A stretch of 63,296 nt of DNA, filler included, from Octopus bimaculoides (GCF_001194135.2; 5 parts of 5 records of this genome joined end to end with filler, not necessarily neighbours in it); one strand, 5' to 3'. Positions 22,421 through 54,126 are shown, counted from the first letter of the whole stretch. Numbers and translations are program-made. Notes: a model not told the origin generated them from the sequence alone.

Positions 22421-22946
22421 AAGTAGTTGTATGTTGTCAACTTAATGTGACAGTTCCCTGAAGGGAATAATACTACTGTTGGTTAGACCTAAGATGCTGC
22501 CTGTCGGACTTGACACATTTCCTGTGTCCTTATGTTTACAAGGGGGAGACAAGCACCTCCACCCAGCTAAGCCTGCATCCAGAGACATGTTTCTGAGTCT
22601 TTGCTCGTCATGCTACTCCAGACTGCATAAATCTCTCTGAGAGATTTAGAAATATATCATTTCCAAAATATGAAATCAATGAATGTATTTCACTAGAATG
22701 ATTATATGTTTACAAGAGCTTGACTGGCATCTTCGACTAGCAGGTCATGCTAATCCAGACTGATGACGAGCAAAGACTCAGAAGCATGTCTCTGGATGCA
22801 GGCTTAACTGGGTGGAGGTGCTTGTCTCCCCCTTGTAAACATAAGGACACAGGAAATGTGTCAAGGCAGCTTCCTAGGTCTAACCAACAGTAGTATTATT
22901 CCCTTCAGGGGACTGTCACATTAAGCTGACAGCATATAAAAACTTT
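22421..22946. mobile_element. Non-coding foldback element with ~190-bp inverted arms carrying hammerhead motifs (copy 1)
   Basis: 22421-22611 is the near-perfect reverse complement of ~22763-22946. The element is colinear and homologous with 53546-54080. Confidence 0.85.
22753..22797 (+). ncRNA. Minimal type I hammerhead ribozyme-like motif
   Basis: atccaga-CTGATGA-c-gag-caaaga-ctc-a-GAAG-c-at-GTC-tctggat: 7-bp stem I, 3-bp stem II, and a GUC site. Deviations are GAAG instead of GAAA and a C/A mismatch at the base of stem II. Confidence 0.6.
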
Positions 22947-24330
22947 AGAGTAGTTTAAAATCTAAAGCCAACAAGCATGGGAGATAATCCTATTAAGATC
23001 TTTTGGTCAACATTTTGGATATTAAAAGCATTTGCTTACTGAAGTCCATCTGATCTTTAAATCAACGGGTCTAACTATGAAATGAGTGTCTAATTAAGTT
23101 TGTTTGGAACTAAATATTTTAACTTGATTTTAATATGTTAAATATTTGTACATGTCTTCGATTTTGTCCCACAGTTTGATCTAACTTGTTTCATTGTATT
23201 AAGGATTTAGATCATGTCTTGGATTATGAGCCATCATTTTAAGATTGCCAAAATCGTAATACTGAAATACATAATTGCGCCAAGTAATGACTATCATTAT
23301 CCCTTCAATTCAAAGCCCCGTTCTTTTTTTTCCTGACTTCATCGTGATATGAAATCAGAACCCCAAACGAACCTCTTGGTTTGAGCGCCACCATATCCAT
23401 TATGCCAAAGCATCGCCGCCTACCAAAACTTTTTTTTTTTATATGAATACCGTTATATCTTTGTATTAGTGTCAGCTATTTCAATTTAACATTGGCGATA
23501 ACCTTGGCTATTTAGCTCGTTTTCTTATATTGGTCCGTGTGATTTCGAAATAACTAATAAGACACGTTGACAAAGAGGTTGTAAGGTTGTATCTTTTGAC
23601 ATTGCTGGAATTACGTTCCGTTCCTCTTAGGCTTTGACACCCATTTTATTTATATTTTATTTCATTTCATTTTATTTATATATTCTTTTATTTCTTTTTT
23701 ACATGAAACTTTCAAATGTCTTGTTTATCAAACCAAATCCTTCGAAATAGCCTTCATATTAACGATTGCCTTACGCAAATCTGTTTATTTCTATCTTCAC
23801 GTTGTTAATGGCATTCACACTTCCTATAAATACAAGGGACAAATTGTAACATATTTTGTCTTGTTTCCTAGTCCTCTAGGTTATTTACATCGTAAATCAA
23901 TGATTTTTGGCACTTTATATTTCATATTATACTGTAGAAAGAAACATTATTACTATAATTCGAAATTTCTCTCCCCCACTCCCACTTTCTTACACTAACA
24001 CACTAATACACACATCTTCAGAAGCATTAATAAACATACACAAAAGTACGCACGCACACACTTACAGACGCGCGCACGTACACACGCACACACACCGACA
24101 CACGCACGCATACGTGTACGCATGCAAGTATGAAAAACATTAAAAAGCGAAACCAATTCTTAGTCACACATACTCACACAAATATACAAATATATGCTTG
24201 AGTGTATGTATGTAAACACACACTCATACACACAAAAATACACATATATACACATACATGGACATATATAGATATACATGCATATGCACACATACATACA
24301 TACATACATATGGGTTATATGTATGCATAC

Positions 24331-24365
<35 letters not shown>

Positions 24366-24762
24366 TGGGTTATATGTATGCATACATATATATATGCATA
24401 TATATNNNNNNNNNNNNNNNNNNNNNNNNNNNNNNNNNNNNNNNNNNNNNNNNNNNNNNNNNNNNNNNNNNNNNNNNNNNNNNNNNNNNNNNNNNNNNNN
24501 NNNNNNNNNNNNNNNNNNNNNNNNNNNNNNNNNNNNNNNNNNNNNNNNNNNNNNNNNNNNNNNNNNNNNNNNNNNNNNNNNNNNNNNNNNNNNNNNNNNN
24601 NNNNNNNNNNNNNNNNNNNNNNNNNNNNNNNNNNNNNNNNNNNNNNNNNNNNNNNNNNNNNNNNNNNNNNNNNNNNNNNNNNNNNNNNNNNNNNNNNNNN
24701 NNNNNNNNNNNNNNNNNNNNNNNNNNNNNNNNNNNNNNNNNNNNNNNNNNNNNNNNNNNNNN

Positions 24763-24794
<32 letters not shown>

Positions 24795-25669
24795 GCATGT
24801 ATTTCGCTGCATACATGTTTGTGTGTGTGTCTGTGTATGCATATACTTATATACTGGGAGGGGTGCATTTATTGACCTGTAAAGCTCACTTCAATAGAAG
24901 TTTCTTCAATCAATAACCTTAGAAATATATGTGTATTGAAGATCTTCTTTGCCACGTTAGATGAGAATGCAAACTGAGTAAAGCAACGGATCATAGAAAA
25001 TATTGACAGGAGGTATATTTTAAATTTATATATTAGTTTGCGATGTTAGTTTTGTCTACGTGCTTCGTCTACTTCATTTGATATAGACGCTCTCTGCTTC
25101 AATAGAAATGTTTTCTGTGGGGTCCTATTTATTTTTATTTTGCTAATATTATTATTGTTGTTTTTTTCTTATTCTCCTTGCTTTTGTTTTTTTTTTCTTG
25201 GCACGGAACACTTAAGCTATCAAAAGGAATATAGTATATCTTCGATAGAATCCTATTTATTTATTTTTTAAATACACTGTTACGCTCAAATGGGATTAAA
25301 TTTATCAACGTTACGAGATCTATATCCTTTTACAACTTTTACGGCATGCTATTTCGCTGTGTTTGTATCTCTTTTATTTCTTCTTATTACATTTAGTATC
25401 TTTGAATAATACGACTGGCAAGTATTTCTAATAACTGTTTACTCAGGGAAAATAAAAGATATATCTGAACAGTACTAAAAAGAATATAACAGCTCATAGT
25501 GATATAAAACAGACTCATAAAAACTACTTGGCTTTTGCTGTTTCTTAATTTCAATGTGTCTAGAGAGAAACCATAGCATTTTTTTTCCTATCCAACGGAT
25601 TTGTTTTCTCAGTCAATGAACAAGTTAGAAATAGCCCTGGACACTACCAATGGTGATAGGTTGAAGGAG

Positions 25670-26200
25670 AAAAGAAAGAAAAATGGCGGTTTGATGTGAG
25701 ATCCAGAGAAGATTTAGTAGACGTCGGCCATGTTTGATTAGCAAGCTAACATCAATGCCCTATCGGCCATTTATCTGAGTTTGCGACTAGTGCTTTTACA
25801 CGCCCTCATCTACATCACTGTCATATCATCTGGAACATGCATACAATTGAATTCGTGCCGCCGTCAGAGATTGTAAACGTCATTCGGTTGCCATCCCTGT
25901 AGAACGTGTCATAAAACTACAGCGCCACACTCGAGACGTATTTCAATTTCGGTAAAAAAAAAAAAAAAAAGTAAGTAAAGAGTAAAGAGATACGCGAAAA
26001 GCAGCCAGCAGAAGTAGCTGGGGCGGAGTGTAGAGGTCAAGAGTAATAGATGGGAGAAAATAGTGACCCAACTGACATATGACATGTACTTTTACTTGAT
26101 GGGAGTTTATTACTCGCTCCAGTTTGATTTCCATACGATATTATGTCGGACATCTTATTATTATGGTAAGCAACTGCTGGATTCTTTTGGAAAGACAGCA
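25670..26200. promoter_or_regulatory. CpG-retaining unique sequence with YY1-like motifs; possible promoter or conserved non-coding element
   Basis: aaaatggcgg at ~25680 (+) and aaacatggccg at ~25725-25735 (-), and gggcggag at ~26021. It has many CpGs, is non-repetitive and has no long ORF. Confidence 0.25.
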
Positions 26201-26448
26201 GTTCATAGGGAAAAAGTGAGAACAAACTGTTAATCTTTCAAACGAGGAAAAATACCAAAAAAATAATAAAAGAATGAAAAGTAAAACATCTATAATAAGC
26301 GAGAAGAAAATGAATGAACATATAAATAAATAAATAAACAAAAAAGAAACAGAAAAATGTTGTTCAGTGACAGAACATTGGCTTGAGCTGTAAAAGAACA
26401 GTTGCGGAAAAATGCTGTGAGACGGAGAGACACGAAAGAGAGGGAGAC

Positions 26449-26490
<42 letters not shown>

Positions 26491-27489
26491 GGGGAACAGT
26501 ATGAGAAAAAAAGGTAAAAATGCATGCATGCATCTTTGTATGTGAACGTATGTAAATGCCAGAATTTACTCATCCCTCTCTCTCTCTCTCTCTCTCTCTG
26601 TATATATATATATATATGTATATANNNNNNNNNNNNNNNNNNNNNNNNNNNNNNNNNNNNNNNNNNNNNNNNNNNNNNNNNNNNNNNNNNNNNNNNNNNN
26701 NNNNNNNNNNNNNNNNNNNNNNNNNNNNNNNNNNNNNNNNNNNNNNNNNNNNNNNNNNNNNNNNNNNNNNNNNNNNNNNNNNNNNNNNNNNNNNNNNNNN
26801 NNNNNNNNNNNNNNNNNNNNNNNNNNNNNNNNNNNNNNNNNNNNNNNNNNNNNNNNNNNNNNNNNNNNNNNNNNNNNNNNNNNNNNNNNNNNNNNNNNNN
26901 NNNNNNNNNNNNNNNNNNNNNNNNNNNNNNNNNNNNNNNNNNNNNNNNNNNNNNNNNNNNNNNNNNNNNNNNNNNNNNNNNNNNNNNNNNNNNNNNNNNN
27001 NNNNNNNNNNNNNNNNNNNNNNNNNNNNNNNNNNNNNNNNNNNNNNNNNNNNNNNNNNNNNNNNNNNNNNNNNNNNNNNNNNNNNNNNNNNNNNNNNNNN
27101 NNNNNNNNNNNNNNNNNNNNNNNNNNNNNNNNNNNNNNNNNNNNNNNNNNNNNNNNNNNNNNNNNNNNNNNNNNNNNNNNNNNNNNNNNNNNNNNNNNNN
27201 NNNNNNNNNNNNNNNNNNNNNNNNNNNNNNNNNNNNNNNNNNNNNNNNNNNNNNNNNNNNNNNNNNNNNNNNNNNNNNNNNNNNNNNNNNNNNNNNNNNN
27301 NNNNNNNNNNNNNNNNNNNNNNNNNNNNNNNNNNNNNNNNNNNNNNNNNNNNNNNNNNNNNNNNNNNNNNNNNNNNNNNNNNNNNNNNNNNNNNNNNNNN
27401 NNNNNNNNNNNNNNNNNNNNNNNNNNNNNNNNNTAGCATTAACATTTTTTTGTAAGATCTTACACAACAAAATACAAAACGTTTAGAAC

Positions 27490-27785
27490 GTAGTGAGTTC
27501 GAGTCCCGGACCGGGCTATGCGTTGTGGTATGCGTTGAGTAAGACAGTTTATTTCACGTTACTCCAGTTCACTCAGATGTAGAAATGAGTCGCAGTATCA
27601 CTGGTATCAAGATGTATCAGCCTTTGCCTTTCTCTTGGATAATATCAGAGACGGATCGAGGAGAGGCTGGTATGCATGGCAACTGATGGTCTTCCATAAA
27701 CAATCTTGCCCGGACTTGTGCATTGGAGGGAAACTTTCTAGGTGCAATCCCATGGTCATTCAAGACCGAAGAGGGTCTTTACCCT
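27490..27785 (+). mobile_element. tRNA-headed SINE
   Basis: gtgagttcgagtcccggaccgggc B-box-like head, followed by tttatttcacgttactccagttcactcag as in 47455-47680 and the reverse complement of 5182-5428. Confidence 0.7.
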
Positions 27786-28379
27786 TCTTAGGTTTTCTCT
27801 ATACATATCGAGTTAATGAGGAAACTTTAATGAGGTCGGTCAACCCGCTAAATACAGCTAAGTCTCTCTGAATTCACAGCCTACTTTTATGATTAATATA
27901 AAAAGCATTGGATAATGTGGTTATTTGAGAGGGAACTATAGCTGCTGCTGCTGCTGTTGCTTATAGCTGCTTACGAAGAAAGAAACTAAGAGAGAGAGAG
28001 AGAAAGGTAGAAAGAGAGAGAGAGAGAGAGAGAGAGAGCGCAAGAGCGTTTACTATGAGATGACAAGAGAGGGTGAATGAATATTATTCTTAAGGAGAGA
28101 AAACCGCTTCTAGGTTTATATTGTATCTTTTTTTTTTCTTATCTTGAGCGGTCTTTTTCCTATGAGTGAAAGGGCATATAGTGTCCATTTATTAGGTATT
28201 CCTGTAATTGTAGTAGTTGTAGATAACGCTATTTCGTCCTTATTCTGGGTTCGCCAGCACAACATAACTTAAGGAGTTGAAATTAGTTGGTCTTATGTAT
28301 TCCTTATTTTATTTTCAAAGCATGAAAATAAAATGGCGTATGGACATAGCTGAAATTTGTAACTCTGGTGTTATCCAAG

Positions 28380-28620
28380 AGAGTAGGCTGTCAGGGTTTT
28401 GTGAGGGCGTTCATTCTGTAAAAGAAATGGACATATATTCAATCATCGAAGCTTCAGAGAAAGCCAGTAAGTGGTTTTCGGTAAAGAGGCTAAATCAGTG
28501 GTTTTCTGCTACTGGGACGCAATTTGGGACTTGATCAATCCTGAGGATCTGATGTTGAAAGATTCTTAAGCCTTAAGAGTCCAGAAACGTCATTGATGGT
28601 GCATCCTAGAACACCTGTGA
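28380..28620 (+). mobile_element. Possible 3' end of a HERO/R2-like RLE retrotransposon
   Basis: IIEASEKASKWFSVKR..W resembles the C-terminal AAE.AS.WLW..R motif, followed by a ctgatgttgaaaga-type 3' UTR. Confidence 0.35.
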
Positions 28621-28904
28621 TATGTATCCTGGAACTAAAACCATATAGCTAGAAAATAAAATGGTTTTATAATCATCGCTTGAATGGCTACAGTCATGTC
28701 ATAATTCTTTGAAATTAGGACGGCCTGGGGTTAAAAGACAACAAACATTAAAGGGCAGCAAAATCTGTTTATAACGACCAGGATCTGCGATTCGGTTGCC
28801 ATTTGCGATTTTAGTTATTTTATTTCAGTTAGTTAAAATGTCTTAAAATATGCTATTAACACGACGCAATCTCATTTCCTCCTCTCTGTAATCATTGTAT
28901 CTTA

Positions 28905-29041
28905 AACCGTACAGGATTGTTGGGACTGTATTCAGTTGAAAGTACACAAGCATACAAGCTCTTGTTACGTTTCCCTAGACACTTTTGTGTATGTGGGCGT
29001 ATTCATATACACATACATACATGCATTCATACATACATACA

Positions 29042-29073
<32 letters not shown>

Positions 29074-29220
29074 CATACATTCATACATTCATACATACAA
29101 ACAAAAATACCCTGTTGTTGATGTGGAAATTCCCATGAAGAAGCCTTAAATCTAGATTAGAAACCGGCTCTTTGTCTGCTGGCAAGAAATCTTGAAATAA
29201 AATTGAACAATGACATACAT
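28905..29220 (-). mobile_element. Decayed SINE-like repeat with an internal (CATA)n microsatellite
   Basis: Head-like segment at 28905-29000, then (CATA)n, then a unique tail ending in tgacatacat. Confidence 0.4.
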
Positions 29221-29519
29221 ACATACATATGTTTTTGCAAAAAATAGTTATAAACTATTTAATTTTTTTTTTCTTTTGAAAATCAGGACACGAATTTTTT
29301 GGAAGGAAGTTTTCGTATTGTGTGTAAGCGCTTTCATTGTTCAACCTTTCAAGCACACGTGTCATGAGCCAATCCATATAGAGGAAATTATTTTTACTAA
29401 TGGTGTTGACTACTTCCAGTTTAGTTTCGGATTTAGAATTTTTATAAAACATTCTCATATTGCATTTTGTTCTTTTATTTTGAAAAAAACCCCAAAATAT
29501 TTAAAATGTTCCATTTATA

Positions 29520-29900
29520 CAAATATCTAGATGTTCACAACATAGAACATTTCTTAGGTATGTATCTTTAATTTGCTAACTGTCTCTGACATTGCTGGTA
29601 AATTTTCCTGTTTGTCCTATGTATTTCTCACCACATTGTGAACATGTGATGCTGTAGATGAGATTTTAATTTACTTTGTATTCATGTTTTCATTCTCCTT
29701 CATTTCTTTCCCAGTCATGAGTATTTTGGTTGTTCCTTGTTCAATTATTTCACACATACATCAACGAGGGTCTTAACAGTTTATTACCTGATTTATTTCT
29801 AGGAGTCATTTGATATTTCGTGGTTGGCTTCAGCTGTTGATAATATGTGATTCTTTAATTATTTGTCGGAATTACGATGACTGATATAGAATTTGAAAGA
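29520..29900 (-). mobile_element. Penelope-like GIY-YIG endonuclease fragment
   Basis: Minus-strand NLIYSITCSQCGEKYIGQTG matches the PLE motif IY.I.C..C...YIGQT. Confidence 0.6.
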
Positions 29901-29993
29901 TATCATTTGGCCGATGATTTCAAGGATTATTGGTGACTATAAATAGAATACACACACACACACATACACATACACACACATATATGCATAAAT

Positions 29994-30041
<48 letters not shown>

Positions 30042-30044
30042 ATT

Positions 30045-30196
30045 ATGCGCCCTTTTAAAGCTTAGCCAGGCTCATGGGCCCGGTTTCCCGGTTTCTATGG
30101 CGTATGTGTTCCTCCCAGCTGGACGGGACGCCAGTCCATCGCAGCGTTACTCAAGAAACAGGAAGAAAGAGTGACAGAAAGTTGTGGCGAAAGAGT
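30045..30196 (-). mobile_element. SINE tail fragment running into a gap
   Basis: tgcgcccttttaaagc.tagccaggctcatg..cccggtttcccggtttc is near-identical to 5182-5270. Confidence 0.8.
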
Positions 30197-31141
30197 NNNN
30201 NNNNNNNNNNNNNNNNNNNNNNNNNNNNNNNNNNNNNNNNNNNNNNNNNNNNNNNNNNNNNNNNNNNNNNNNNNNNNNNNNNNNNNNNNNNNNNNNNNNN
30301 NNNNNNNNNNNNNNNNNNNNNNNNNNNNNNNNNNNNNNNNNNNNNNNNNNNNNNNNNNNNNNNNNNNNNNNNNNNNNNNNNNNNNNNNNNNNNNNNNNNN
30401 NNNNNNNNNNNNNNNNNNNNNNNNNNNNNNNNNNNNNNNNNNNNNNNNNNNNNNNNNNNNNNNNNNNNNNNNNNNNNNNNNNNNNNNNNNNNNNNNNNNN
30501 NNNNNNNNNNNNNNNNNNNNNNNNNNNNNNNNNNNNNNNNNNNNNNNNNNNNNNNNNNNNNNNNNNNNNNNNNNNNNNNNNNNNNNNNNNNNNNNNNNNN
30601 NNNNNNNNNNNNNNNNNNNNNNNNNNNNNNNNNNNNNNNNNNNNNNNNNNNNNNNNNNNNNNNNNNNNNNNNNNNNNNNNNNNNNNNNNNNNNNNNNNNN
30701 NNNNNNNNNNNNNNNNNNNNNNNNNNNNNNNNNNNNNNNNNNNNNNNNNNNNNNNNNNNNNNNNNNNNNNNNNNNNNNNNNNNNNNNNNNNNNNNNNNNN
30801 NNNNNNNNNNNNNNNNNNNNNNNNNNNNNNNNNNNNNNNNNNNNNNNNNNNNNNNNNNNNNNNNNNNNNNNNNNNNNNNNNNNNNNNNNNNNNNNNNNNN
30901 NNNNNNNNNNNNNNNNNNNNNNNNNNNNNNNNNNNNNNNNNNNNNNNNNNNNNNNNNNNNNNNNNNNNNNNNNNNNNNNNNNNNNNNNNNNNNNNNNNNN
31001 NNNNNNNNNNNNNNNNNNNNNNNNNNNNNNNNNNNNNNNNNNNNNNNNNNNNNNNNNNNNNNNNNNNNNNNNNNNNNNNNNNNNNNNNNNNNNNNNNNNN
31101 NNNNNNNNNNNNNNNNNNNNNNNNNNNNNNNNNNNNNNNNN

Positions 31142-31183
<42 letters not shown>

Positions 31184-32799: not shown

Positions 32800-32838
<39 letters not shown>

Positions 32839-33086
32839 TATATATATAAGGGATTATACATATTTTGCCGAAGCGCTAATTTGCGGGGGCATTAACGAAC
32901 AAGCACTTGTTGACAAGTAGTAGAGACAAAGACGATACGAAGACACACACATTGCAACCATGTAATTTAGAATTCAGTCCCACAGTGTTTTATGTTGGGC
33001 GAATGTCTTTTATTATAATAACAGATTGACATGACCGATGCCTTTTGAATGAATTTCGTCAAAAGATACTGTGCGGAAGCCGGTTG

Positions 33087-33558: not shown

Positions 33559-33636
33559 GAGAAGTACTGATGAACAACAATTGATTTACGTCAGTTATTA
33601 TTTATGTAAGTCAATTGTTGTTCATCAGTACTTCTC
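33559..33636. repeat. 78-nt hairpin with a 33-bp stem and 12-nt loop
   Basis: 33559-33591 pairs with 33604-33636. Pairing is complete on the + strand with two G-U wobbles. Confidence 0.85.
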
Positions 33637-40489: not shown

Positions 40490-40722
40490 AAGGCGGCGAG
40501 CTGGCAGAAACGTTAGCACGCCGGGCAAAATGCTTAGCGGTATTTCGTCTACCTCTACGTTCTGAGTTCAAATTCCGCCGAGGTCGACTCTGCCGTTCAT
40601 CCTTTCGGGGTCGATTAAATAAGTACCAGTTACGCACTGGGGTCGGTATAATCGACTTAATCCGTTTGTCTGTCCTTGTTTGTCCCTTCTGTGTGTAGCC
40701 CCTTGTGGGTAGTAAAGAAATA
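40490..40722 (+). mobile_element. Young full-length tRNA-headed SINE with a 21-bp target-site duplication
   Basis: acacaaaaattaagttggttg at 40469-40489 and 40723-40743; CpGs are retained. Confidence 0.92.
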
Positions 40723-41314
40723 ACACAAAAATTAAGTTGGTTGTTTCTGATTTGTTTCATCATAAGACAAATACTAATATATTCCACTGTCCAAGAAGTG
40801 AATTATGTAGGTATTTAAATCACTGCCACCAACAAATTAACAGCATGCAATTTAATCTACCCATTATAGTTGAGTTCTAGTTTGTGGTTGATTTGTCAAT
40901 GAACTATGAAACATATCAAAACAATCTTCCATACTTCAAAAGTTAAAAGCTTAAAAGCTGCCATTTAACTGCTTTCAATTTATCTTAGAAAACCAACTAT
41001 AGTATGCATATATATATATCTGATGAAGGCTACATAACTGGAGCTTCATAGTGACTGACAAACTTTTACCTAATAAAAGTAAAATAAATATGTTACTCTA
41101 CTAAAAATTTTCAAGTGATCCTTCAGTCGAATATTTGACTGTTTTTATATATAACTGTCCATAAAAACAAACATATACAAACATACATACATACATACAT
41201 ACGTACATACATATATATACAGACATACACACACACACACACATACACACACACACACACACATATATATACACATATCCATAAATGTATATGCATATAT
41301 ATATGTATGTATCT

Positions 41315-43004: not shown

Positions 43005-43612
43005 TACTCTTTTACTCTTTTACTTGTTTCAGTCATTTGACTGTGGCCATGCTGGAGCACCACCTTTAGTCGAGGACTTATTCTTTGTAAGCCTAGTACT
43101 TATACTATCGGTCTCTTTTGCCGAACTGCTAATTTATGGGGACATAAACACACCAGCATCGGTCGTCAAGCGATGTTCTGGGACAAACACAGACACACAA
43201 ACATGTACACACACACACACACACACACATATATATTGCCCAACTCTTCGAAATGCCGGTGTTAAAACGGGGGTAGCTGATGAAGAAGAATGTTCTCTAT
43301 GTGGCTTGTGTGTTTTCTCGTCTACGTTTTGTTTGCAATGTCCTGTACGCAGATATGCACCTACACATACAGGTGGATGTCGGTATGCACATACCTGTAC
43401 GTATATATGCATATACTCATTTACTATTTATATATGTATATATATATACATATATACGACAGGCTTCTTTCAGTTTCTGTCTACCACTCACAAGGCTTTG
43501 GCTGGCCTGAGGCTATAGTAGAAAACACTTGCCTAAGGTGCCACACAGTGGGACTGAACCCGGAACCGTGTCATTGGTAAGCAAACTACTTACCACACAG
43601 CCACTCCTACGT
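43005..43612 (-). mobile_element. tRNA-headed SINE interrupted by an internal insertion or microsatellite
   Basis: Head at 43455-43612 and tail at 43005-43230 are reverse complements of 46275-46645. Confidence 0.8.
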
Positions 43613-43926
43613 CTATATTAGTTTATTTCTTGCAATACTTCATTCACATTCAAGGACTTTGAGAATTCTCCTTATGCAATAAAGTGACATAAACATAATA
43701 TTTGCAAACTTTGTAAGAACAGCATGTTGAGGTTTAATAACTTTTGCTAAATTACAATATTTACTCTCTCTCAGACAATTTCTGCAGCTCACCTCATCCT
43801 TTCTTTACTCAGTAATACCTTTATCTATCTATCTATTATCTACCTGCCTACCTACCTACTGACCTACCTACCTACCTACCTACCTACCTACCTACCTACC
43901 TACCTACCTACCTATCTATCTGTCTG

Positions 43927-43986
<60 letters not shown>

Positions 43987-43989
43987 CCC

Positions 43990-44600
43990 TAACCAGCCCC
44001 TCCCCTCCTTCAAACAAGCCTACAACATACGAGACCTCTTGGTCCACAGCTTCTGCCCTAACTCAACCTCCCAACCTGGCTCATTCCCCTACTCCCGCCC
44101 ATGCTGCTGCACTTGCCCTTACCTCTCCAACGCCACCCTCCTCACCAGCATCCATCACTGGCACCCATCATTGACCCTATCATATCACCGACTCCTTCAC
44201 TTGCACTTCTACCAATGTCATCTACTGCATCTCCTGCTCTCTCTGCCTTTTTCTATATATCGGGCAAATGGGACGCCGCTTGGCTGACCGGTTCACGGAA
44301 TACCTCCAAGACATCCGATTTCGCAATGGCACCTCGGTCTCATGCCATTTCCGCTCTACCGGTCACTCTTTGCAACACCTGTCTGCATTCAGATTGTCCT
44401 TGCACAGGGGCCATCCGGATTATCTTCCCGTCTTCCTAGCTCTCCTGTGAAACCCTTCTGTCCAGCATTCGCCATGATAGATTGCTAGCCACTACACATT
44501 CTTTATTTTCTCTCCTTGTTTCTTTCTGTGTTCCTTTCTGTGGAAGTGTGTAGGCTCGAAACGTTAAAGACTTTTCACTTCCCGAGTGTTAAACAATTAT
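43990..44600 (+). mobile_element. Penelope-like element 3' fragment (GIY-YIG endonuclease plus terminal repeat)
   Basis: PSFKQAYNIRDLLVHS...PGSFP...CCTCPY; ITDSFTCTSTNVIYCISCSLC; YIGQMGRRLADRFTEYLQDIR...VSCHFRSTGHS, all across frameshifts. Confidence 0.85.
44534..44569 (+). ncRNA. Degenerate minimal hammerhead motif in the PLE terminal repeat
   Basis: cttt-CTGTGGA-agtgtgtaggctc-GAAA-C-GT-T-aaag: 4-bp stem I and palindromic ACGT stem III. A6 is mutated and stem II is imperfect. Confidence 0.45.
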
Positions 44601-44647
44601 ACATCTGTTTGTTGTCTACAACACCTGTCTTCGTCTTTTGTTTTCTT

Positions 44648-44729
<82 letters not shown>

Positions 44730-44742
44730 ATATATATATATA

Positions 44743-44796
<54 letters not shown>

Positions 44797-44814
44797 CATA
44801 TATATACATATATA

Positions 44815-45830: not shown

Positions 45831-46274
45831 CTCATGTATGTATATGTATGTGTGTGTGTGTGTGTGTATGCGTATATATATATATATATCTATATATCTA
45901 TATGTATATATGTATAGTTTTAGGGAAAATAACCAATTTTCAAGAACTCATCGATGAAAATCCACTATCACATATAGAAAAATTAATAATTAAAAGCACA
46001 ATAAATGAGTATAATGTAAAGTAAAGTAAATATCATAAGATAAATATAATATAATATATTGAATATATGAAATATNNNNNNNNNNAATAATTAAAAGCAC
46101 AATAAATGAGTATAATGTAAAGTAAAGTAAATATCATAAGATAAATATAATATAATATATTGAATATATGAAATATTGAGTGTTCAATATAAAGGATTAA
46201 ATATATAAAGGCGAATACGTATTTTCTATACCTTGTGGTATTTCATCATGGCCGGTATCTGACAGATAGGCACA

Positions 46275-46645
46275 GCAGTGGCTGTGTGATAAGTTGCTTG
46301 CTTACCAACCACATGGTTCCGGGTTCAGTCCCACTGCATGGCACCTTGGGCAAGTATCTTCTATACCCTCAGGCCGAACAAAGCCTTGTGAGTGGATTTG
46401 GTTGACGGAAACTGAAAGAAGCCCATCGCATATATATATATGTATATGTGTATATGTTTGTGTGTCTGTGTTTTGCCCCCCACCTCTGCTCCAATGTTGG
46501 TGTGTTTACATCCCTGTAACCTAGCAGCTTGGCCAAAGAGACCAAAGTACTAGGCTTACAAAGAATAAGTACTGGGTCGATTTGTTCAACTAAAGGCGGT
46601 GCTCCAGTATGGTCGCAGTCAAATGACTGAAACAAATAAAAGAAT
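46275..46645 (+). mobile_element. Full-length tRNA-headed SINE with an internal microsatellite
   Basis: Head gtggctgtgtgataag...ggttccgggttcagtcccactg and tail ...cagtcaaatgactgaaacaaataaaagaataaaagaat; multiple copies in the window. Confidence 0.85.
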
Positions 46646-46656
46646 AAAAGAATATG

Positions 46657-46707
<51 letters not shown>

Positions 46708-46799
46708 TAATGTAATTGAAACAGTTATTGGATTTTTAAGGTGTGATCTAAAATAAAGACATGATTTTCTTTGTACATATTATTTGTTGTTATACATAA

Positions 46800-47255
46800 A
46801 TGTTTATATATTATAGATGACTGCTTGTTTTTAGCTGCTCAACCTTTTCAAGTATGGTGTCTTCTTCCACAACATATTTCCTTGACCTTAGTTTGTCTTT
46901 GAGGCTGGTGTCACCTTCCTAGAAATGTCTGAACCAGTTTTGTACCATCTATTTGTTAACCATTCCTGGGCTTTCTACATCATTAATTTCTGTTGCTGCT
47001 GCTCCTGCATTCAACCCTTTTTCCACAGGTAGTTTAAAATGGCTCTGTTTTTTAATTCTTTCACCACTTATTATCAAAGCTATAAAATAAAGAATACAAA
47101 ATTAATGTTTATATGTTATATATGAAAATAAAAAATAAACAGTTCACCAACGATTGGACATTTTGTATAAAATCAAGGATATAACATGGAGATAAAAGTT
47201 GTTAAAAATCACCTGTAAAAAACCTGCAAAACATTTTTGACCCAACCTGGTATAG
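46800..47255 (-). mobile_element. Mariner 5' remnant (ITR plus HTH region)
   Basis: ITR-like ccaggttgggtcaaaaatg near 47250. Peptide GLNAGAAATEINDVESPGMVNK*MVQNWFRHF*EGDTSLKDKLRS matches the mariner HTH/WF..F..GD.SL.D..RS motif. Confidence 0.7.
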
Positions 47256-47454
47256 ATGGAAAAGTTTCTAAAAATATATATTTATGCCATAATACATCTT
47301 TATCAACCATTTCATTATGTGTGTGTGTATATATAGAGAGAGAGCAGTCACTTTTCTCCGCTTTTAGTATTCCAGAATATTTTAGCAGGCACTTTTGTGC
47401 TTTATGAAACTGATTATTAACTGAATAGCTCATATCTTGTTATATTAAAAAAAT

Positions 47455-47680
47455 TGTGGAGGAGTATGGTTTAGTGGTTAGGGTGTTGGAATCATGATAA
47501 TAAGATTGTAGTTTCAATTCCTGGACTGGGTGATGCATTGGGATCTTGAGAAAAACATTTCATTTCATGTTGCTCCAATTCAATCAACAGACACATCTGA
47601 GTAATCTTGGGGTGGATGAGTGTCCTGTCCAGGAGAAAAAATACATGCACCACAAAATCTAGGGCACTTGGGAAGGATCT
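47455..47680 (+). mobile_element. CpG-decayed tRNA-headed SINE
   Basis: ggtttagtggttagggtgttgg...gtttcaattcctggactggg matches the reverse complement of 5350-5428. Confidence 0.7.
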
Positions 47681-48235
47681 TTTTCCTATTATCCTATATC
47701 AAAAAATTGAGAACAAATAGGATAATATTGCTGTTGATACTTAGTCTTAATATAATATTGAATATTCATTAATAGTAAACCTTTGATATTAAGTTTGCTC
47801 TCTCAGGAGTGATCTGAGGCTATATAAGAAAAAAAAAAACTTCTTATAAACTGAGGCAGTTACAGCTCCCCAACAATCTTCTTGAAGTCATTATATCGGC
47901 AAGATGTATCTATATCTGTGTTGTCACTGGTATAATATTGTAACTGTAGCATTTTTTTGTCTTTTTAGTAGATACACTGTGATTGAATAAATGTCTATAT
48001 GCTGAAGTATGGTTTTGTCACACAAATATCTGAAATATTTCAATTCAGAATTGCAAATTGCACAACTCAAGAACTATATTCTGTATACTTTAGACATATA
48101 TTATTTGAAGTCCATGAAAATCACTAGTTTTGTCCTGAAATAACTGAAGTTTAAAATTTTTTATCCTATAAATATTGAAGAATAAAGATAAATTCAAACT
48201 ACTTGAGTAGAAAGTGATGATTCTTTTGAAAATTC

Positions 48236-48767
48236 CTACACCTTGATGTTGGTTGTAAAATTTGATTTACTACTTTGAGATAATATTGAGCTTTGATCTA
48301 TTGACAAATGATCTTTCAGAATAAAAGTAATTGTCTTCCATATAAATATTGAAACTAATTTAAAAGACTGATTTTGTTTATTTAATTTTCCTTGTGGAAA
48401 AGAAACAACTGAAAAGAAGATAAGATGGTGGATATGGTTAATTGTTCTGGTGTTGGATTTTGGAATGAGATATATCACTCCAATAGCTACTTGTAGGGTA
48501 ACTATATATAGATGTTGCTTTATTTTTAATATTTCAATTCTATTGGATAACTTATATTTGGTTGTGTCAAGAACATTTTCAACATACATTTTATAGTTTA
48601 AAATGTTATCTCCAGACTGAATAAAATAATAGAGATTCTGTTCAGGAAATTTTGATACAGTGTATGGCAACAACATAAAAATAAGATTCCTGGAACCATC
48701 AATGAAATAACGATCTCTAAGTCCAACTGTATCCCAAGTATGTGTACATAATGTATATGTCATTTGA
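48236..48767 (-). CDS. Probable coding exon or exons of unknown product, possibly of the death-fold gene
   Basis: A 573-bp stop-free frame in very AT-rich unique DNA. The listed ORF starts at TTG right after a stop, but there is an acceptor tttgtAG at 48769-48768 and a second strong acceptor ttttccacaAG near 48395. Confidence 0.35.
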
Positions 48768-50093
48768 CTACAAATGATGATCAAACCAGTAAAACAGAAT
48801 ATTTCCAATTAGTATCTTGTCTCTTCTTTAGCTTTCACTATATACAAATGAGTTGAAGTGTTATTGTCTACATGATAAACCTATTAGAAATTGTAATGGC
48901 GTTTGAATTCAAATAAAAATCAATACTGCTATCTTAGCTTTGTTTAGAAAGTTTGCAGAGGCAACCATTGTTATATTACTAGAATATGTAATCCCTGTGA
49001 TAATCTATTGGCATACGAAGCCATTCCTTGCAGTTTTTTGTCTAGCATATAATCTTACTATTAGCTACTTAGATTTTTTTTGTTAGACTCTTTTCATAGC
49101 AAAAAGAAAGCTTGGATAACTTTTAGATATATAAAATATTATAGATATAGCTAGAGAAAAATAAAAATTTAGTAGACATATAGTGTACTTTTTCTCCTTT
49201 TTGTATTGCTAAATCTGGAGTAATGGACAACGTATATGACTTTGATGCTGTTAAAATTTGGTTGAAACTTTTGTAAGTTAACACCTGCAGAGAAGACACG
49301 AGCAGGGAGAATTGAATATGTTCTGATATATACACTGATATATTACTGGTATTTATTCTATTGACATAAAAGAAATTCCAGTGGTATTTGAAAGCATTGA
49401 GAGAGAGGGGAAGAGGGAGGCAGAGAGTGAAAGAAAGAGAAAGTGAGAGAGAGAGGTTGGGGTGAAACAGTATAATTTTATTGCTAACAAATTGTTATTG
49501 TCCAATTAAGAATAATATTGTTACAAATTTGATTTCTGCAATCCAAAAACTATATTACATTTTCTGGTTTTTTGTTTTTGTATATATTTAGAAAATACTT
49601 TTTTTCTTTTCATTATTTCTATATTTGAAGTTTTTATTCTAGATACTGTCGTTGTTATTCTCTTTCTTCTTCCAATGCTTACTACGTTTCTTCTAGTTTT
49701 ATGCTCTGAGTTCAAATTCTGCAATGATTGACTTTGTCTCTCATCCCTTCAGGATAGATAAAATAAATATCAGTCAAATACTGAAACCATTGTAACTCAC
49801 TAGCCTCCTCCACCAAGATTTAAGGCTGCCTATAGTAGAAAAGATTAACATTATTATTATAATTATTTGGATTCATTTAGATTTGGTCTTATTCCTGGTA
49901 GAAGTTATGTGGGTAGCAGTTTACTACATGTAATTTTAGATATCCACAAGCTTTCAATAATCTTTCAAGTGCTCAAAACATTTCTGATAATCTTCTGTGT
50001 CCTTAAGAAGCCAAATTTCTATACAAGCTCTACATGACCTCTACATGACATTTCATTCCAATCTTCAGCCATTTGTCTATATCATTACCTGCA

Positions 50094-50141
<48 letters not shown>

Positions 50142-50929
50142 TTATGTTTGACTTTTGTTTTGCATTTGTACAAGTTGGATCCAAGTCTCACCCAGAGACC
50201 TCAAGAGACAACAAGTTAGAAGTTCATGTAGGTGTTATGCCTAGGGTACCATATATTTGGATTTGTACAGTTTTGTTCAAGTGAATGTTTAAGAAACCAT
50301 AAGAAAATTATGTTTGCTTTAAAATTTGAGATCACATAGACAGTATTTTACGTAGGATATGGGCAGTTCCCNNNNNNNNNNNNNNNNNNNNNNNNNNNNN
50401 NNNNNNNNNNNNNNNTTAATTAATTAANNNNNNNNNNNNNNNNNNNNNNNNNNNNNNNNNNNNNNNNNNNNGGCTAGTCTGTCATGGCTCAGTGGTTTTG
50501 GAGACTGGTTTTAGAGGTCAGAATGTCTCTGTGCATGTCTCTATGTGTGTGTGTGTGTGTGTATATACATGTTTTTGTGTCTGTGTCTGTGTCTGTGTGC
50601 CGTTTTTGATTGGTCCCAGAGTTTATTGTAGCGTGTGTATATGGGACTGTGTATGTTTTATATTTGGTAGGATGGTGTGTGTACATGTGTGCACGTTTGT
50701 GTATGTGTGTGTGTGATTAGCATTTGTTAGGGTGTTGCGTGTGTGCATGTGTGTATGTGTGCGTCTGTGGGTGCGTGTATGTATGTTTGTGTGTTTTTTG
50801 TTGGTGGGGATGTTATGTGTGTACGTGAGAATGTGTGTGTGTGTGTGTGTGTCTGTATGTATATGTTGTTTTATGTATATATTGTTTTAATTGTCCTTGT
50901 GGTGTGTGTATGAGTAACCGTATGTATGT

Positions 50930-51385
50930 GTGTGTATCAACAGTGACAACAACCATATCCAATTTACAATGGAATATAGTGAAGACCAACTTCCTTTTCT
51001 TGACATTCTCATTATAAAAAAGGCACCAACATTGAAACTGATATCCGTTACAAACCGACTGATTTCAAGCAATACCTTCTGTTCACCTCTAATCACCCAA
51101 AGCACACGAAGACAAACATTTCTTTCAACCTAGCGAGAAGAATTTGTACAATTGTCTCAAATTATAGAACACGAAATAAAAGACTCCAAGAACTAAAGGC
51201 AATTCTTCTCGAAAGACATTACCCAGCATCATTAGTCGACAATGGAATAGAACGGGCCAAGACAATTGCTACCCAAGATTTGCGAAAATCGAAACACACT
51301 CACGGCATATTAAATAGTCTCCCATATCTCTCAACCCATAATCCAAGAAATACAGAAGCTTACACAATTATATACGTGCGACTCA
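50930..51385 (+). mobile_element. Penelope-like RT C-terminal (thumb) fragment
   Basis: NNHIQFTMEYSEDQLPFLDILIIKK, then TDIRYKPTDFKQYLLFTSNHPKHTKTNISFNLARRICTIVS...RLQELKAILLERHYP. Confidence 0.85.
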
Positions 51386-51581
51386 TAAACTTTCTCGGTA
51401 GTTTAAATATTTGGTGAAAAGCAATTTANNNNNNNNNNNNNNNNNNNNNNNNNNNNNNNNNNNNNNNNNNNNNNNNNNNNNNNNNNNNNNNNNNNNNNNN
51501 NNNNNNNNNNNNNNNNNNNNNNNNNNNNNNNNNNNNNNNNNNNNNNNNNNNNNNNNNNNNNNNNNNNNNNNNNNNNNNNNN

Positions 51582-51608
<27 letters not shown>

Positions 51609-51614
<6 letters not shown>

Positions 51615-52422
51615 CATCCACTCGTGCCCGAGGAAGACCATTGTTGACCTTCAGGAACACAGTGCGCTCTAGAACTAACTTATATTTTTGCATTTGCGGC
51701 TCCGTTGGAAGCTAATGAATTCTGCTTTTGACAAGCATACACGACTGCAAACATTGCAGACCCATTTTCCCCCATTCATTACACCAGCAGTGTGCTTTCG
51801 AGCAGCACGCTTAAGTTCTTTATGCAGAATATGTGTTCTCTCAAAAGTGTCCACCCTTTCCTTAACCTGCTCCCTCTATATGTGGCGATGACAGGCATTC
51901 CTTTCCCAGTCAGTATCCTGCATATCACAGGCCTTTAATGAGGACTTGACACAGTCCTTAAATCGCAGCCTTGGTTTCTGCCGGGGCCTCTTTCCATTGA
52001 CAAGTTCCCCATATCGTATCTGCTTAGGTATCTTGCTATAGTTCATTCTAATAAGGTGTCCAGTCCAACGTAACCGGTGTTTGTGCACCATCGCCTCAGT
52101 ACTTAATATATCAGCTGTCTTCAGGTCCTGTGTGTCTGGAGTTTTAAGGTGCAACCAGCATTCAGAATGTGTCTGAGTCATCTCTGATGAAACGTTCAAG
52201 GAACCTTACATGACGTTTGTAAAGGGTCCATGTCTCACATGAGTAAAGGAGCGATGTCAGTACACATGCACTGTACACAGCAATTTTTGTTTGCTTTGTG
52301 ATGCCATGCTGGGAACAGAGATGAGACTGAAGAGACCGGAAAGAATCAGTTACTCTCTGCAGCCTGAAAGATATTTCATCAGACAAGGAGCAAGAACGGA
52401 TAAGTGCGCTGCCCAGGTACAT
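51609..52422 (-). mobile_element. RTE (BovB-like) LINE 3' segment
   Basis: YLGS...TKIAVYSACVLTSLLYSCETWTLYKRH, and HRLRWTGHLIRM...PKQIRYGEL..GKRPRQKPRLRFKDCVK. The 3' end abuts a (TA)n tail at ~51609. Confidence 0.88.
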
Positions 52423-52810
52423 AAACTTAGTGCAGTCTGGAGGGATGATGCAATGCCTAAGTACTGGAAGGATGCGATTATTCTATAAAGGAAAAGGAGC
52501 CATAACAATGTATGGTAACTACAGAGGTATTGCTCTACTATCAGCTGCTAGCAAGGTTCTGACACATATTCTTCTTACCCGCCTGAATGGGTGTCTTGTA
52601 AATGATGTCCTATCTGAATCTCAATGTAGCTTCCGATCTGGTAGAGGGACAATGGATATGGTTTTCACAGCAGGAGTGCTATGAGCAGAATATGGATCTT
52701 GTCCAGGTATTCGTTGATTTAACGAAGGTCTTTGATACTGTGAATAGGGGCTTGCTATGGAAAATACTTAGCAAACATAGATGTCCTGATCAATTTGTAT
52801 CTATAATTAT
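52423..52810 (+). mobile_element. RTE LINE RT N-terminal segment, inverted relative to its 3' part
   Basis: WKDAII..YKGKG....GNYRGIALLSAASKVL...SESQCSFRSGRGTMDMVF and FVDLTKVFDTVNRGLLWKIL. Confidence 0.88.
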
Positions 52811-52852
<42 letters not shown>

Positions 52853-53711
52853 NNNNNNNNNNNNNNNNNNNNNNNNNNNNNNNNNNNNNNNNNNNNNNNN
52901 NNNNNNNNNNNNNNNNNNNNNNNNNNNNNNNNNNNNNNNNNNNNNNNNNNNNNNNNNNNNNNNNNNNNNNNNNNNNNNNNNNNNNNNNNNNNNNNNNNNN
53001 NNNNNNNNNNNNNNNNNNNNNNNNNNNNNNNNNNNNNNNNNNNNNNNNNNNNNNNNNNNNNNNNNNNNNNNNNNNNNNNNNNNNNNNNNNNNNNNNNNNN
53101 NNNNNNNNNNNNNNNNNNNNNNNNNNNNNNNNNNNNNNNNNNNNNNNNNNNNNNNNNNNNNNNNNNNNNNNNNNNNNNNNNNNNNNNNNNNNNNNNNNNN
53201 NNNNNNNNNNNNNNNNNNNNNNNNNNNNNNNNNNNNNNNNNNNNNNNNNNNNNNNNNNNNNNNNNNNNNNNNNNNNNNNNNNNNNNNNNNNNNNNNNNNN
53301 NNNNNNNNNNNNNNNNNNNNNNNNNNNNNNNNNNNNNNNNNNNNNNNNNNNNNNNNNNNNNNNNNNNNNNNNNNNNNNNNNNNNNNNNNNNNNNNNNNNN
53401 NNNNNNNNNNNNNNNNNNNNNNNNNNNNNNNNNNNNNNNNNNNNNNNNNNNNNNNNNNNNATATATATATATATATATAAATATATATATTAGAAATGAT
53501 CCATTTCTAAATCTCACAGAGAAACTTAAGCAGCAGTGTTACGATAAAGTACTTGTATACTGTCAACTTAACGTGACAGTCCTAATAAGGGAATCATACT
53601 ACTGCTATTTAGCCCTAGGTAGCTGAACCGCTTCCTGTCGGCCTTGACACATTTCCTGTGTCCTTATGTTTACGAGGGGGAGACAAGTACCTCCACCAAG
53701 CCAAGCCTGCA

Positions 53712-53754
53712 TTGAGGGACATGTTTCTGAGTTTTTGCTCGTCATCAGCCTGAG
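53712..53754 (-). ncRNA. Minimal type I hammerhead-like motif, intact core
   Basis: ctcagg-CTGATGA-c-gag-caaaaa-ctc-a-GAAA-C-AT-GTC-cctcaa: palindromic ACATGT stem III and a GUC site. Stem I has only 3 contiguous pairs. Confidence 0.6.
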
Positions 53755-53871
53755 GTAGAGTGATTTAGAAATGAATCATTTCTAATTTTTGTAATTAGTG
53801 AACGTGTTTCACTAGAAATATATATGTTTACGAGAGCTTGACAAGCATTTTCAGCCAGCTAGTCATGCTAC

Positions 53872-53914
53872 TTCAGGCTGATGACGAGCAAAAACTCAGA
53901 AGCATGTTCCTGAA
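53872..53914 (+). ncRNA. Minimal type I hammerhead-like motif
   Basis: ttcagg-CTGATGA-c-gag-caaaaa-ctc-a-GAAG-c-at-GTT-cctgaa: perfect 6-bp stem I. Confidence 0.6.
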
Positions 53915-54126
53915 TGCAGATTAGGCTGGGTGGAGGTACTCGTCTCCCTCTTGTAAACATAAGGACACAGGAAATGTGTCAAGGCCGACAAGGAGCGGTC
54001 CAGCTTCCTAGGGCTAAATAGTAGTAGTATGATTCCCTTATTGGGACTGTTACGTTAAGTTGACAGTATGCAACTACTTTATATATATATATATTGGCTA
54101 AACTGGCAGTATGACCATCCCCAAGT

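Follow-up and report, generated by a model that had tools for sequence, protein, structure and literature searches.

Hammerhead-bearing inverted repeats of Octopus bimaculoides are probably insertions of a retrozyme-like monomer that closes head to tail

Two non-coding elements of ~530 bp in the genome of Octopus bimaculoides, each with long inverted arms and hammerhead-like motifs, raise the question of which unit was mobilised: the inverted structure as a whole, or a shorter sequence that became inverted upon insertion. The original prediction had opted for the former, namely a fold-back 'inverted retrozyme' with one minimal hammerhead ribozyme per strand, moved by Penelope-like elements (PLEs) and only superficially resembling a MITE. 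Alignment within the analysed stretch of DNA (63,296 nt; hereafter the window) confirmed two related non-coding elements with inverted arms (22392-22947 and 53518-54081; 77% identity over 580 columns, E = 7e-132), the arms being 90.6% identical over 191 columns in copy 1 (22421-22611/22763-22945) and 90% identical over 220 nt in copy 2 (53544-53763/53863-54082). Self-alignment of the whole window revealed no third copy.

The left boundaries first proposed (22421 and 53546) proved too narrow, with homology continuing leftwards through 22392-22419 and ~53490-53545, i.e. for 28 nt in copy 1 and ~56 nt in copy 2, on this side only. In both copies, this tail corresponds to the beginning of the central spacer in inverted orientation, which makes the unit a monomer of ~340-350 nt that closes on itself in the order tail (53 nt), spacer, hammerhead, arm and tail again, measuring ~336 nt in copy 1 and ~351 nt in copy 2, with a GC content of 40-41% and no ORF. 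Each insertion consists of a near-full monomer and, before it, an inverted, 5′-truncated, tailed one (Table 1), and the family has two termini, the arm end and the tail end, 53 nt apart. We consider it probable that the elements are two aged insertions of this multi-copy monomer, likely a non-LTR retrozyme pasted into AT-rich DNA by a PLE reverse transcriptase (RT)-endonuclease, with the inverted arm likely made anew at each insertion.

Table 1 Features of the two elements, in window coordinates
Feature	Position	Strand	Properties	Basis
Copy 1 tail	22392..22419	-	one-sided, 28 nt; continues left arm; inverted spacer start	sequence comparison
Copy 1 left arm	22420..22611	-	inverted, 5′-truncated partial monomer; hammerhead core broken at junction	
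Copy 1 junction insert	22607..22625	+	direct copy (18/19) of 22744-22762; GTCAT and ACTG overlaps at borders	
Copy 1 near-full monomer	22622..22946	+	325 of ~336 nt: tail part, spacer, hammerhead, arm	
Copy 1 right-arm type I hammerhead	22754..22796	+	stem I 6/6; C10.1-A11.1; G15.1; predicted cut after 22790	
Copy 2 tail	53490..53545	-	one-sided, ~56 nt; TA repeat blurs border; stops at family's second terminus	
Copy 2 left arm	53546..53763	-	inverted, 5′-truncated partial monomer	
Copy 2 left-arm type I hammerhead	53712..53754	-	A15.1; GUC; stem I 4/6; predicted cut after 53718	
Copy 2 near-full monomer	53758..54080	+	323 of ~351 nt; (TA)n microsatellite at right flank	
Copy 2 right-arm type I hammerhead	53872..53914	+	stem I 6/6; UAC bulge; G15.1; GUU; predicted cut after 53908	

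A structure-aware scan of the window for type I hammerheads returned exactly three sites, two with a 6/6 stem I (22760+ and 53878+) and one with 4/6 (53748-), compared to means of 0.0 at 6/6 and 0.08 at 4/6 or better in 100 first-order Markov sequences. A looser pattern, with 14 overlapping matches versus 3.4 expected, was too permissive by itself. Three of the four arms thus bear the predicted hammerhead, the exception being the left arm of copy 1, where C3-U4-G5 and the 5′ strand of stem I are missing at the inversion junction; likewise, the anticipated ~155 nt from cut to element end applies to copy 1 (156 nt), not to copy 2 (172 nt). The motif comprises a helix I of 6 bp, a helix II of 3 bp plus a C-A pair, capped by a CAAAAA or CAAAGA loop 2, and a helix III of 2 bp with a palindromic loop. 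It is the canonical metazoan type I form, deviating by the core-adjacent C-A mispair, and a predicted ribozyme. The 'minimal' PLE-type hammerhead, whose hallmarks are a helix II of 7-8 bp, a helix I of 4-5 bp and G10.1-C11.1 after one bulged base (PMC4209133), had to be abandoned: the octopus motif has a 6-bp helix I with a UAC bulge in copy 2 and a short helix II whose loop is of the HH9/canonical type. What it shares with the PLE forms is the opposite-strand pairing (pairs of hammerheads on the two strands, 100-700 bp from each other, were published in 2014; Cervera & de la Pena, PMC4209133), a palindromic 15.2-16.2 region and a dimer-type design.

Relative to copy 1, stem I of the copy 2 right arm carries two compensatory changes (A-U/G-C and C-G/U-A), a covariation between the two right arms. 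The accompanying Rfam comparison was less favorable, with Hammerhead_HH9 matching copy 2 at 53858-53931+ (19.9 bits, E = 0.0045) and 53695-53767- (19.8 bits, E = 0.013), far under the gathering score of 52, and no Rfam hammerhead matching within 22740-22830. The whole-window Rfam scan gave 126 matches, all of them microsatellite- or hairpin-driven miRNAs or snoRNAs and none a hammerhead; MIR2606 matches on copy 2 were rejected as hairpin artefacts. No arm in the window is a fully canonical ribozyme, since both right arms read GAAG (G15.1), two of six stem I positions are mismatched in the copy 2 left arm, and C10.1-A11.1, a ground for rejection in Perreault 2011, is mispaired in all four arms. 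For G15.1 mutation, an activity loss of >100-fold has been reported. The whole family probably shares the basal C-A pair of helix II. GAAG is a minority or unassessed variant in the DNA runs, because T>C at ≥8% occurred at only two places per run, both identified as other sites (22434 and 22455).

In silico folding of the two monomers yielded z-scores of -4.8 and -7.0 as linear RNAs, with 0/100 shuffles equally stable, and of -4.0 and -7.3 as circles; the antisense strands, too, fold better than shuffles (-2.4 and -5.4). Three of 80 predicted pairs in the resulting rod are compensatory and 15 substitutions in paired columns keep pairing, in a comparison of only two sequences, the same from which the structure was derived. 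A double-hammerhead fold is predicted to lie 7-8 kcal/mol below two monomer folds. In the whole fold-back, the probabilities of stem I and stem II were 0.0 on the three core-bearing strands, as opposed to 0.88-1.0 for stem I in the monomer alone, supporting the earlier proposal that the hairpin competes with ribozyme folding; the fold-back is predicted to sequester the hammerhead fully.

Public reads and contigs (four of 24 listed runs; contig sets X3 and X14) were aligned to copy 1 coordinates over a stretch excluding the right arm, depths near 22745-22762 and 22610-22624 being edge-affected. The RNA evidence consists of raw RNA reads, and among indexed runs no RNA run with the family was listed. 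Head-to-tail closure recurred in these data: 75 contigs of X3 and 90 of X14, as well as 60 and 49 RNA reads, lead collinearly from the arm end plus 11 nt to 22622. Loose ends at the arm end (22418/22421) and the tail end (22663) are heterogeneous and AT-rich (agreement 0.48-0.57), and summed depth suggests a copy number of ~10^4. Depth is strongly 3′-biased, with 0.35-1.1 million in arm and tail (X3) and ~40-80 thousand, about tenfold lower, in the spacer interior.

This bias would also suit an improbable alternative, in which a longer PLE, autonomous or long non-autonomous, has arm and tail as its pLTR end; its truncated ends would make up most copies, and the ~350-nt closed unit would be a passively amplified internal deletion without a circular RNA stage and possibly with an inactive hammerhead. 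Such an origin could accommodate 71 and 111 RNA reads in which the tail is continued by a different, well-agreeing sequence (agreement 0.86/0.96 at the loose end behind 22668), the in vitro transposition of PAc without hammerhead cleavage (PMC11167929), and a preprint that derives retrozymes from pLTRs and in which eight of nine tested dimers were uncleaved (Li, Clavereau & Pollet 2026, 10.64898/2026.07.22.740005). However, both copies keep the same tail-spacer-hammerhead continuity despite 14-17% divergence, and arm and spacer form a rod whose pairing is maintained by compensatory and wobble changes. The spacer still reaches ~1,700-2,600x flank depth at 22700-22714, even though mapping to it is lowered because the copy 1 spacer differs from the family majority at many sites. 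Similarity to PLE ORFs was not significant among the matches listed, and the RNA loose end behind 22668, two short motifs of which are absent from the window, may represent one expressed locus, since it does not rank with the top loose ends of the DNA.

A head-to-tail dimer with two same-sense hammerheads was not seen in the short contigs or the RNA reads, the junction reads among the latter extending no more than 57 nt into the spacer side and only ~16 nt beyond the tail end. In 807 and 578 aligned RNA reads, ends did not accumulate at the cut site (22583/22584), an outcome also reported for the active PAc element (PMC11167929). Exact 24-mer and 30-letter family patterns had 0 matches each in JGI metagenome contigs.

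We regard it as very unlikely that what is inherited and moves is the inverted configuration as such, PLE-copied from a fold-back master with conversion keeping the arms alike. The arms diverge by 6.6% and 9.5% within copies and by 14-17% between them, and 15 of the 16 informative columns group by copy, one by side and none crosswise. The side-specific column, which might speak for such a unit, is the A15.1/G15.1 site (GAAG right, GAAA left), at which GAAG is the variant discussed above. Both copies invert near the 5′ edge of the hammerhead and restart in the tail, but their junctions differ, copy 2 lacking the 19-nt insert of copy 1, which may reflect two template switches. Among the joints listed (15 of 72 and 12 of 38 rows), there were at least ten different truncation or inversion points of the left arm, and all but one joint had a depth of 46-71, compared to unique-flank depths of 45 (X3) and 27 (X14). 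Nearly all inverted junctions are hence at about single-locus depth. At least one inverted form has been amplified, because the junction from 22479 to 22634 reaches a depth of 3210 in X14 (~120x flank), yet it is absent from X3. One X3 contig (record 16) spanning a copy-1-like centre in the alignment would also suit a fold-back unit; against it, the ribozyme is predicted to be buried in fold-back RNA. With variable inversion points, arms grouping by copy, a one-sided tail and head-to-tail closure of the monomer, the fold-back did not stand as the family's unit.

No fixed-length target-site duplication (TSD) is present at copy 1, and the flanks of copy 2 are unreadable inside (TA)n; a 5-nt word common to the surroundings of the copy 1 ends was rejected because of its overlap with the element and its distance of 24 nt to the right end. 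MITE and Foldback DNA transposons are short and non-coding, with long inverted arms. Capture of a hammerhead in the long TIRs of such a transposon, suggested by the arms, the ~530-bp size and the TA flanks of copy 2, is highly improbable and largely refuted by asymmetric ends with a one-sided tail, variable arm length and centre in place of a uniform structure, the missing TSD, the 3′-biased depth and the RNA-level covariation of stem I, leaving the likeness to MITEs as superficial as had been foreseen.

The likely mode of insertion links the closed monomer to PLEs. PLE insertions feature an inverted 5′-truncated copy, a 30-40-bp tail and a microsatellite bias (PMC8557442; PMC3846280), and in PAc the tail is the interval between two RT start sites and targets are AT-rich (PMC11167929). 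Both octopus copies have an inverted 5′-truncated copy adjoining the 5′ end, joined head to head and variable between copies, and a one-sided tail (28 and ~56 nt) corresponding to the sequence after the pLTR, with two 3′ termini (22418-22421 and 22663). Likewise, targets are AT-rich or microsatellite, copy 2 lying in (TA)n and the loose ends at the two termini having an AT-rich consensus, with no fixed TSD. In contrast to PLEs, the family lacks an RT-GIY-YIG ORF, its tail measures 53-56 nt rather than 30-40 bp, and this tail returns into the unit itself instead of an ORF-bearing body. The notion of a non-autonomous, hammerhead-bearing family that is most likely PLE-mobilised is thereby supported. 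The four PLE fragments (RT/GIY-YIG) in the window, put forward as helper candidates, are real, but none is joined to a family arm, and the window yielded no helper pLTR with homology to the arm. After the GIY-YIG fragment (44175-44447) comes a hammerhead-like remnant distinct from this family. A tblastn comparison of 80 PLE-type proteins with the elements gave no significant match among those listed (best E = 0.048), and Pfam on 12 ORF fragments returned no PLE domain at E 0.01, with mariner in two fragments and only one RVT_1 match.

Non-LTR retrozymes of mussel (~350-390 bp) and axolotl (330/350 bp) are of type I, self-paired and 170-400 nt long (Cervera & de la Pena 2020, PMC7229834). The octopus monomer falls within this size range and resembles them in its canonical-type type I hammerhead, GC content below 50%, lack of an ORF, tiny palindromic helix III suiting dimers, predicted self-pairing and head-to-tail closure. 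The base of helix II is mismatched in axolotl HHR_Amex2 as well, which still cleaves, although the mismatch there is U-U rather than C-A. Unlike these retrozymes, the octopus copies analysed here appear as inverted pairs with a PLE tail and not as tandem arrays; with a type I motif and inverted repeats, they also differ from plant LTR retrozymes, which have type III hammerheads and direct LTRs. We found no literature description of such an element in cephalopods, the nearest being 235 Hammerhead_1 matches counted in giant squid. The repeat is likely a new family among non-LTR retrozymes or non-autonomous PLEs and not a new kind of element, its newness being judged from the literature rather than from Repbase or Dfam.

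In the mechanism we propose, source loci would be head-to-tail repeats whose monomer RNA is modeled as a long rod extending hammerhead stem I. The source transcript would either be cut by paired hammerheads sharing a 6-bp ACAUGU helix III and circularised, or be used uncut; as both copies are intact through the cut site, the template would be a circle or an uncut multimer. By analogy with PAc biochemistry, a PLE protein may nick both strands of an AT-rich target, and reverse transcription may begin internally at two sites 53 nt apart. The two cDNAs, 3′ ends outward and one of them tailed, would then be joined head-to-head at variable 5′ truncations via short overlaps. A read-through transcript of the product is predicted to form a ~200-bp hairpin that locks the ribozyme, so that fold-back copies would be ribozyme dead ends and possible dsRNA sources.

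A more far-reaching scenario, which we consider unlikely, supposes that the retrozyme is active through circular RNA and that the C10.1-A11.1 variant is family-wide, with ~10^4 insertions in an octopus genome, many of them ~200-bp hairpins and at least one inverted form (the 120-fold junction) mobile by itself; the read-through hairpins would provide an Alu-like dsRNA pool for ADAR editing or small-RNA control. The octopus lineage edits its RNA heavily. In the family's reads, there was no A-to-I signal (A>G+T>C versus C>T+G>A places 58:45 in RNA and 16:17 in DNA, the latter from other animals; Fisher p = 0.55). No current model is overturned by these results. They carry a warning for annotation, since such copies resemble MITEs, and the basal C-A pair of helix II offers a cheaply testable ribozyme variant. 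In the literature consulted, the case for a PLE origin of animal retrozymes has relied on co-occurrence and pLTR similarity; here, a closed non-coding monomer of retrozyme type carries a PLE-specific footprint, i.e. inversion and a two-terminus tail, and thus lends direct support to mobilisation by PLEs.

The two elements of the original prediction proved real and related, copies 1 and 2 sharing 77% identity over 580 columns, and their inverted arms were confirmed (191 columns at 90.6% in copy 1; 220 nt at 90% in copy 2). The left boundaries first assigned were too narrow: homology runs 28 nt (copy 1) and ~56 nt (copy 2) further left, and in both copies the added bases correspond, in inverted orientation, to the beginning of the spacer, the central non-arm part. 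Of 16 informative columns, 15 group the four arms by copy and one (the A15.1 site) groups them by side; divergence within each copy is 6.6% and 9.5%. The copy 1 junction holds a 19-nt insert, directly copied from 22744-22762 and flanked by GTCAT and ACTG overlaps, which is read as two template switches.

Four of 24 listed runs were mapped onto 22340-22762 at 80% likeness, namely the public DNA contig runs X3 and X14 (the latter from a second organism, organism B) and the raw RNA read runs X21 and X23. The arm end plus 11 nt leads straight into 22622 (75 and 90 contigs; 60 and 49 RNA reads) and the spacer end joins the hammerhead, so that the unit reads tail (53 nt)-spacer-hammerhead-arm, the tail being the one-sided extension left of the former boundary. 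This non-coding monomer measures ~336 nt in copy 1, including a 16-nt deletion, and ~351 nt in copy 2, at 40-41% GC. Its predicted fold is a long rod that prolongs helix I (z -4.8 and -7.0, matched by 0 of 100 shuffles); the antisense strands likewise fold better than shuffles (z -2.4 and -5.4). Between the two sequences compared, all 15 substitutions in paired columns preserve base pairing in the rod, with compensatory changes at 3 of 80 pairs. A 31-column block (22835-22865 and its counterpart in all four arms) is invariant, the arms otherwise differing by 7-17%; it takes in a small hairpin as well as the helix that closes the rod, and is a candidate protein-binding signal. Relative to the unique flank, summed depth peaked at ~24,000-fold and ~36,000-fold, which is no copy number as such and places family abundance at the order of 10^4 only.

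A structure-aware scan of the whole window found three type I hammerhead motifs, all in element arms; 100 Markov sequences gave on average 0.0 motifs each with a 6/6 stem I and 0.08 when 4/6 or more sufficed. A hammerhead had been claimed for every arm; three of the four carry the motif, but the left arm of copy 1 has lost C3-U4-G5. In Rfam, Hammerhead_HH9 gave weak matches to two arms (E 0.0045 and 0.013), scoring ~20 bits where the gathering score is 52, and none to the third core-bearing arm. The layout is canonical metazoan: helix I spans 6 bp, copy 2 has a UAC bulge, loop 2 reads CAAAAA/CAAAGA, and helix III has 2 bp with an ACAUGU or GCAUGU palindrome. This palindrome would suit a double hammerhead, whose modelled fold is more stable than two monomer folds by 7-8 kcal/mol. 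The right arms differ in helix I by two compensatory changes, A-U to G-C and C-G to U-A, and both 3'-strand variants (positions 22579 and 22583) are common across the family in the sequencing runs.

Three features count against activity: C10.1-A11.1 in all four arms, G15.1 in both right arms, and mismatches at 2/6 helix I positions in the left arm of copy 2. Perreault 2011 rejected matches with core-adjacent mispairs but described a natural U10.1-U11.1 variant; mutation of A15.1 is cited with a >100-fold loss, and according to Cervera 2020 (PMC7229834) axolotl HHR_Amex2 still cleaves with U-U at the helix II base. Among the best 40 of 108 variants, T>C at 8% or above falls at only two places per DNA run, 22434 and 22455, both identified, which leaves G15.1 and G11.1 as either minority or unassessed variants. 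The family norm is probably GAAA with A11.1.

The fold-back probably arises at insertion. Among the joints listed (best 15 of 72 and best 12 of 38), the left arm is truncated at no fewer than ten points, and all but one of these joints have a depth of 46-71 against a flank of 45 and 27, i.e., about one locus each. The exception, 22479 to 22634, occurs in X14 (organism B) only and reaches a depth of 3210, ~120 times the unique flank, showing that one inverted form was amplified. At two family termini, the arm end (22418-22421) and the tail end (22663), the loose ends are heterogeneous and AT-rich; no TSD was found at copy 1, and copy 2 lies within (TA)n. Penelope-like elements (PLEs) leave an inverted 5'-truncated copy plus a 30-40-bp one-sided tail, according to Craig 2021 (PMC8557442) and Arkhipova 2013 (PMC3846280); the inverted 5'-truncated partner and one-sided tail of the octopus family are this published footprint. 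Frangieh 2024 (PMC11167929) showed that the tail is the stretch separating two sites at which RT starts internally, with AT-rich nicks on both strands. Dual hammerheads on opposite strands, 100-700 bp apart, are already known from Cervera 2014 (PMC4209133).

RNA reads matching 22340-22762 numbered 807 and 578 (~6% of each run sampled). They derive equally from both strands, and 86-88% continue into sequence unlike this interval. Head-to-tail junctions were spanned by 27+19 (X21) and 20+11 (X23) reads, none of them extending beyond 57 nt on the spacer side. Among the 807 and 578 reads, no read ends piled up at the hammerhead cut site; the sole end pile lies at 22628 in X23, where 45 molecules end and the loose parts measure ~107 nt, as if a transcript started or ended inside the tail. 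In 71 and 111 reads the tail is followed by one well-agreeing foreign sequence (loose end behind 22668). Candidate sources are a promoter like that of a PLE pseudo-LTR, the body of a helper, a transcript of the host or an artefact of the library. Family reads gave no sign of editing (p 0.55). The proposal that the hairpin competes with ribozyme folding is borne out computationally: whole fold-back transcripts (three strands with core) have a predicted probability of 0.0 for both helix I and helix II, against 0.88-1.0 for helix I when the monomer is folded by itself. On these models, the fold-back copies are most readily regarded as dead ends.

The window consists of AT-rich animal DNA full of microsatellites and includes 6,600 N. 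Its PLE fragments, put forward as helper candidates, do encode RT and GIY-YIG remains, but none of the four has a family arm attached; gaps cut two of them. Their homologues number 77 and 3, many with RVT_1 and GIY-YIG. An annotated Octopus bimaculoides protein shares 88% identity with the PLE protein fragment at 51004-51414, so the host is probably an octopus. The window also has two or more additional families of dispersed SINE-like repeats, several as close inverted pairs.

Features of the window and truncation points of the family
Feature	Positions	Strand	Remarks
Type I hammerhead	22760	+
Type I hammerhead	53878	+
Type I hammerhead	53748	-
Left-arm truncation points	22424, 22479, 22494, 22533, 22541, 22551, 22556, 22583, 22593, 22595		run joints
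PLE fragment	19379-19609	-	broken RT / thumb / GIY-YIG
PLE fragment	29450-29949	-	broken RT / thumb / GIY-YIG
PLE fragment	50918-51414	+	broken RT / thumb / GIY-YIG
Decayed PLE 3' end	43982-44447	+	cysteine-rich GIY-YIG region
Different hammerhead-like remnant	near 44540-44570 (region 43982-44650)	+	GCTCGAAACGTT; follows PLE fragment at 44175
Another hammerhead-like type	22016-22070	+	CUGANGA ... GAAACUCGGAG
Another hammerhead-like type	3072-3105	-	same type; 3105 site inside loose 252-nt palindrome 2997-3248, opposite strand with CUGACGA at 3139
Third family, like minimal PLE hammerheads	290-349; 589-610	-; +	related outward-facing CUGAUGA motifs, ~240 bp apart
78-nt palindrome	33559-33636		inward-facing CUGAUGA at both outer ends; no full hammerhead
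Lone CUGAUGAAGGG	33425	-
Mariner transposase, frameshifted	19551-20406	-	Mos1-type HTH, partial DDE
Non-LTR RT fragments	51879-52850	both	internally inverted copy, presumably RTE-like; RVT_1 match at 52331-52681 (E 7e-5)
SINE-like repeats	13608-14184, 40493-40723, 58526-58685, 62917-63289
SINE-like repeats, further set	42-217, 43012-43177, 57058-57233, 58027-58193
Minisatellite	18359-19383		29-bp unit repeated ~35 times, with small N gaps within the array

On membership testing, the family came out as neither a MITE nor an LTR retrozyme, and its hammerhead fell outside the minimal PLE class. No description in cephalopods was found in the literature searched; the Cervera supplementary alignments, Repbase or Dfam may hold the family or the C-A variant. 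The octopus family appears to work like the non-LTR retrozymes treated in Cervera 2020 (PMC7229834), and can be likened to the retrozymes moved by PLE machinery in the Li 2026 preprint (10.64898/2026.07.22.740005). By analogy with these systems, it is probably a non-LTR retrozyme moved by PLE machinery, with putative circles, cleavage and tandem arrays.
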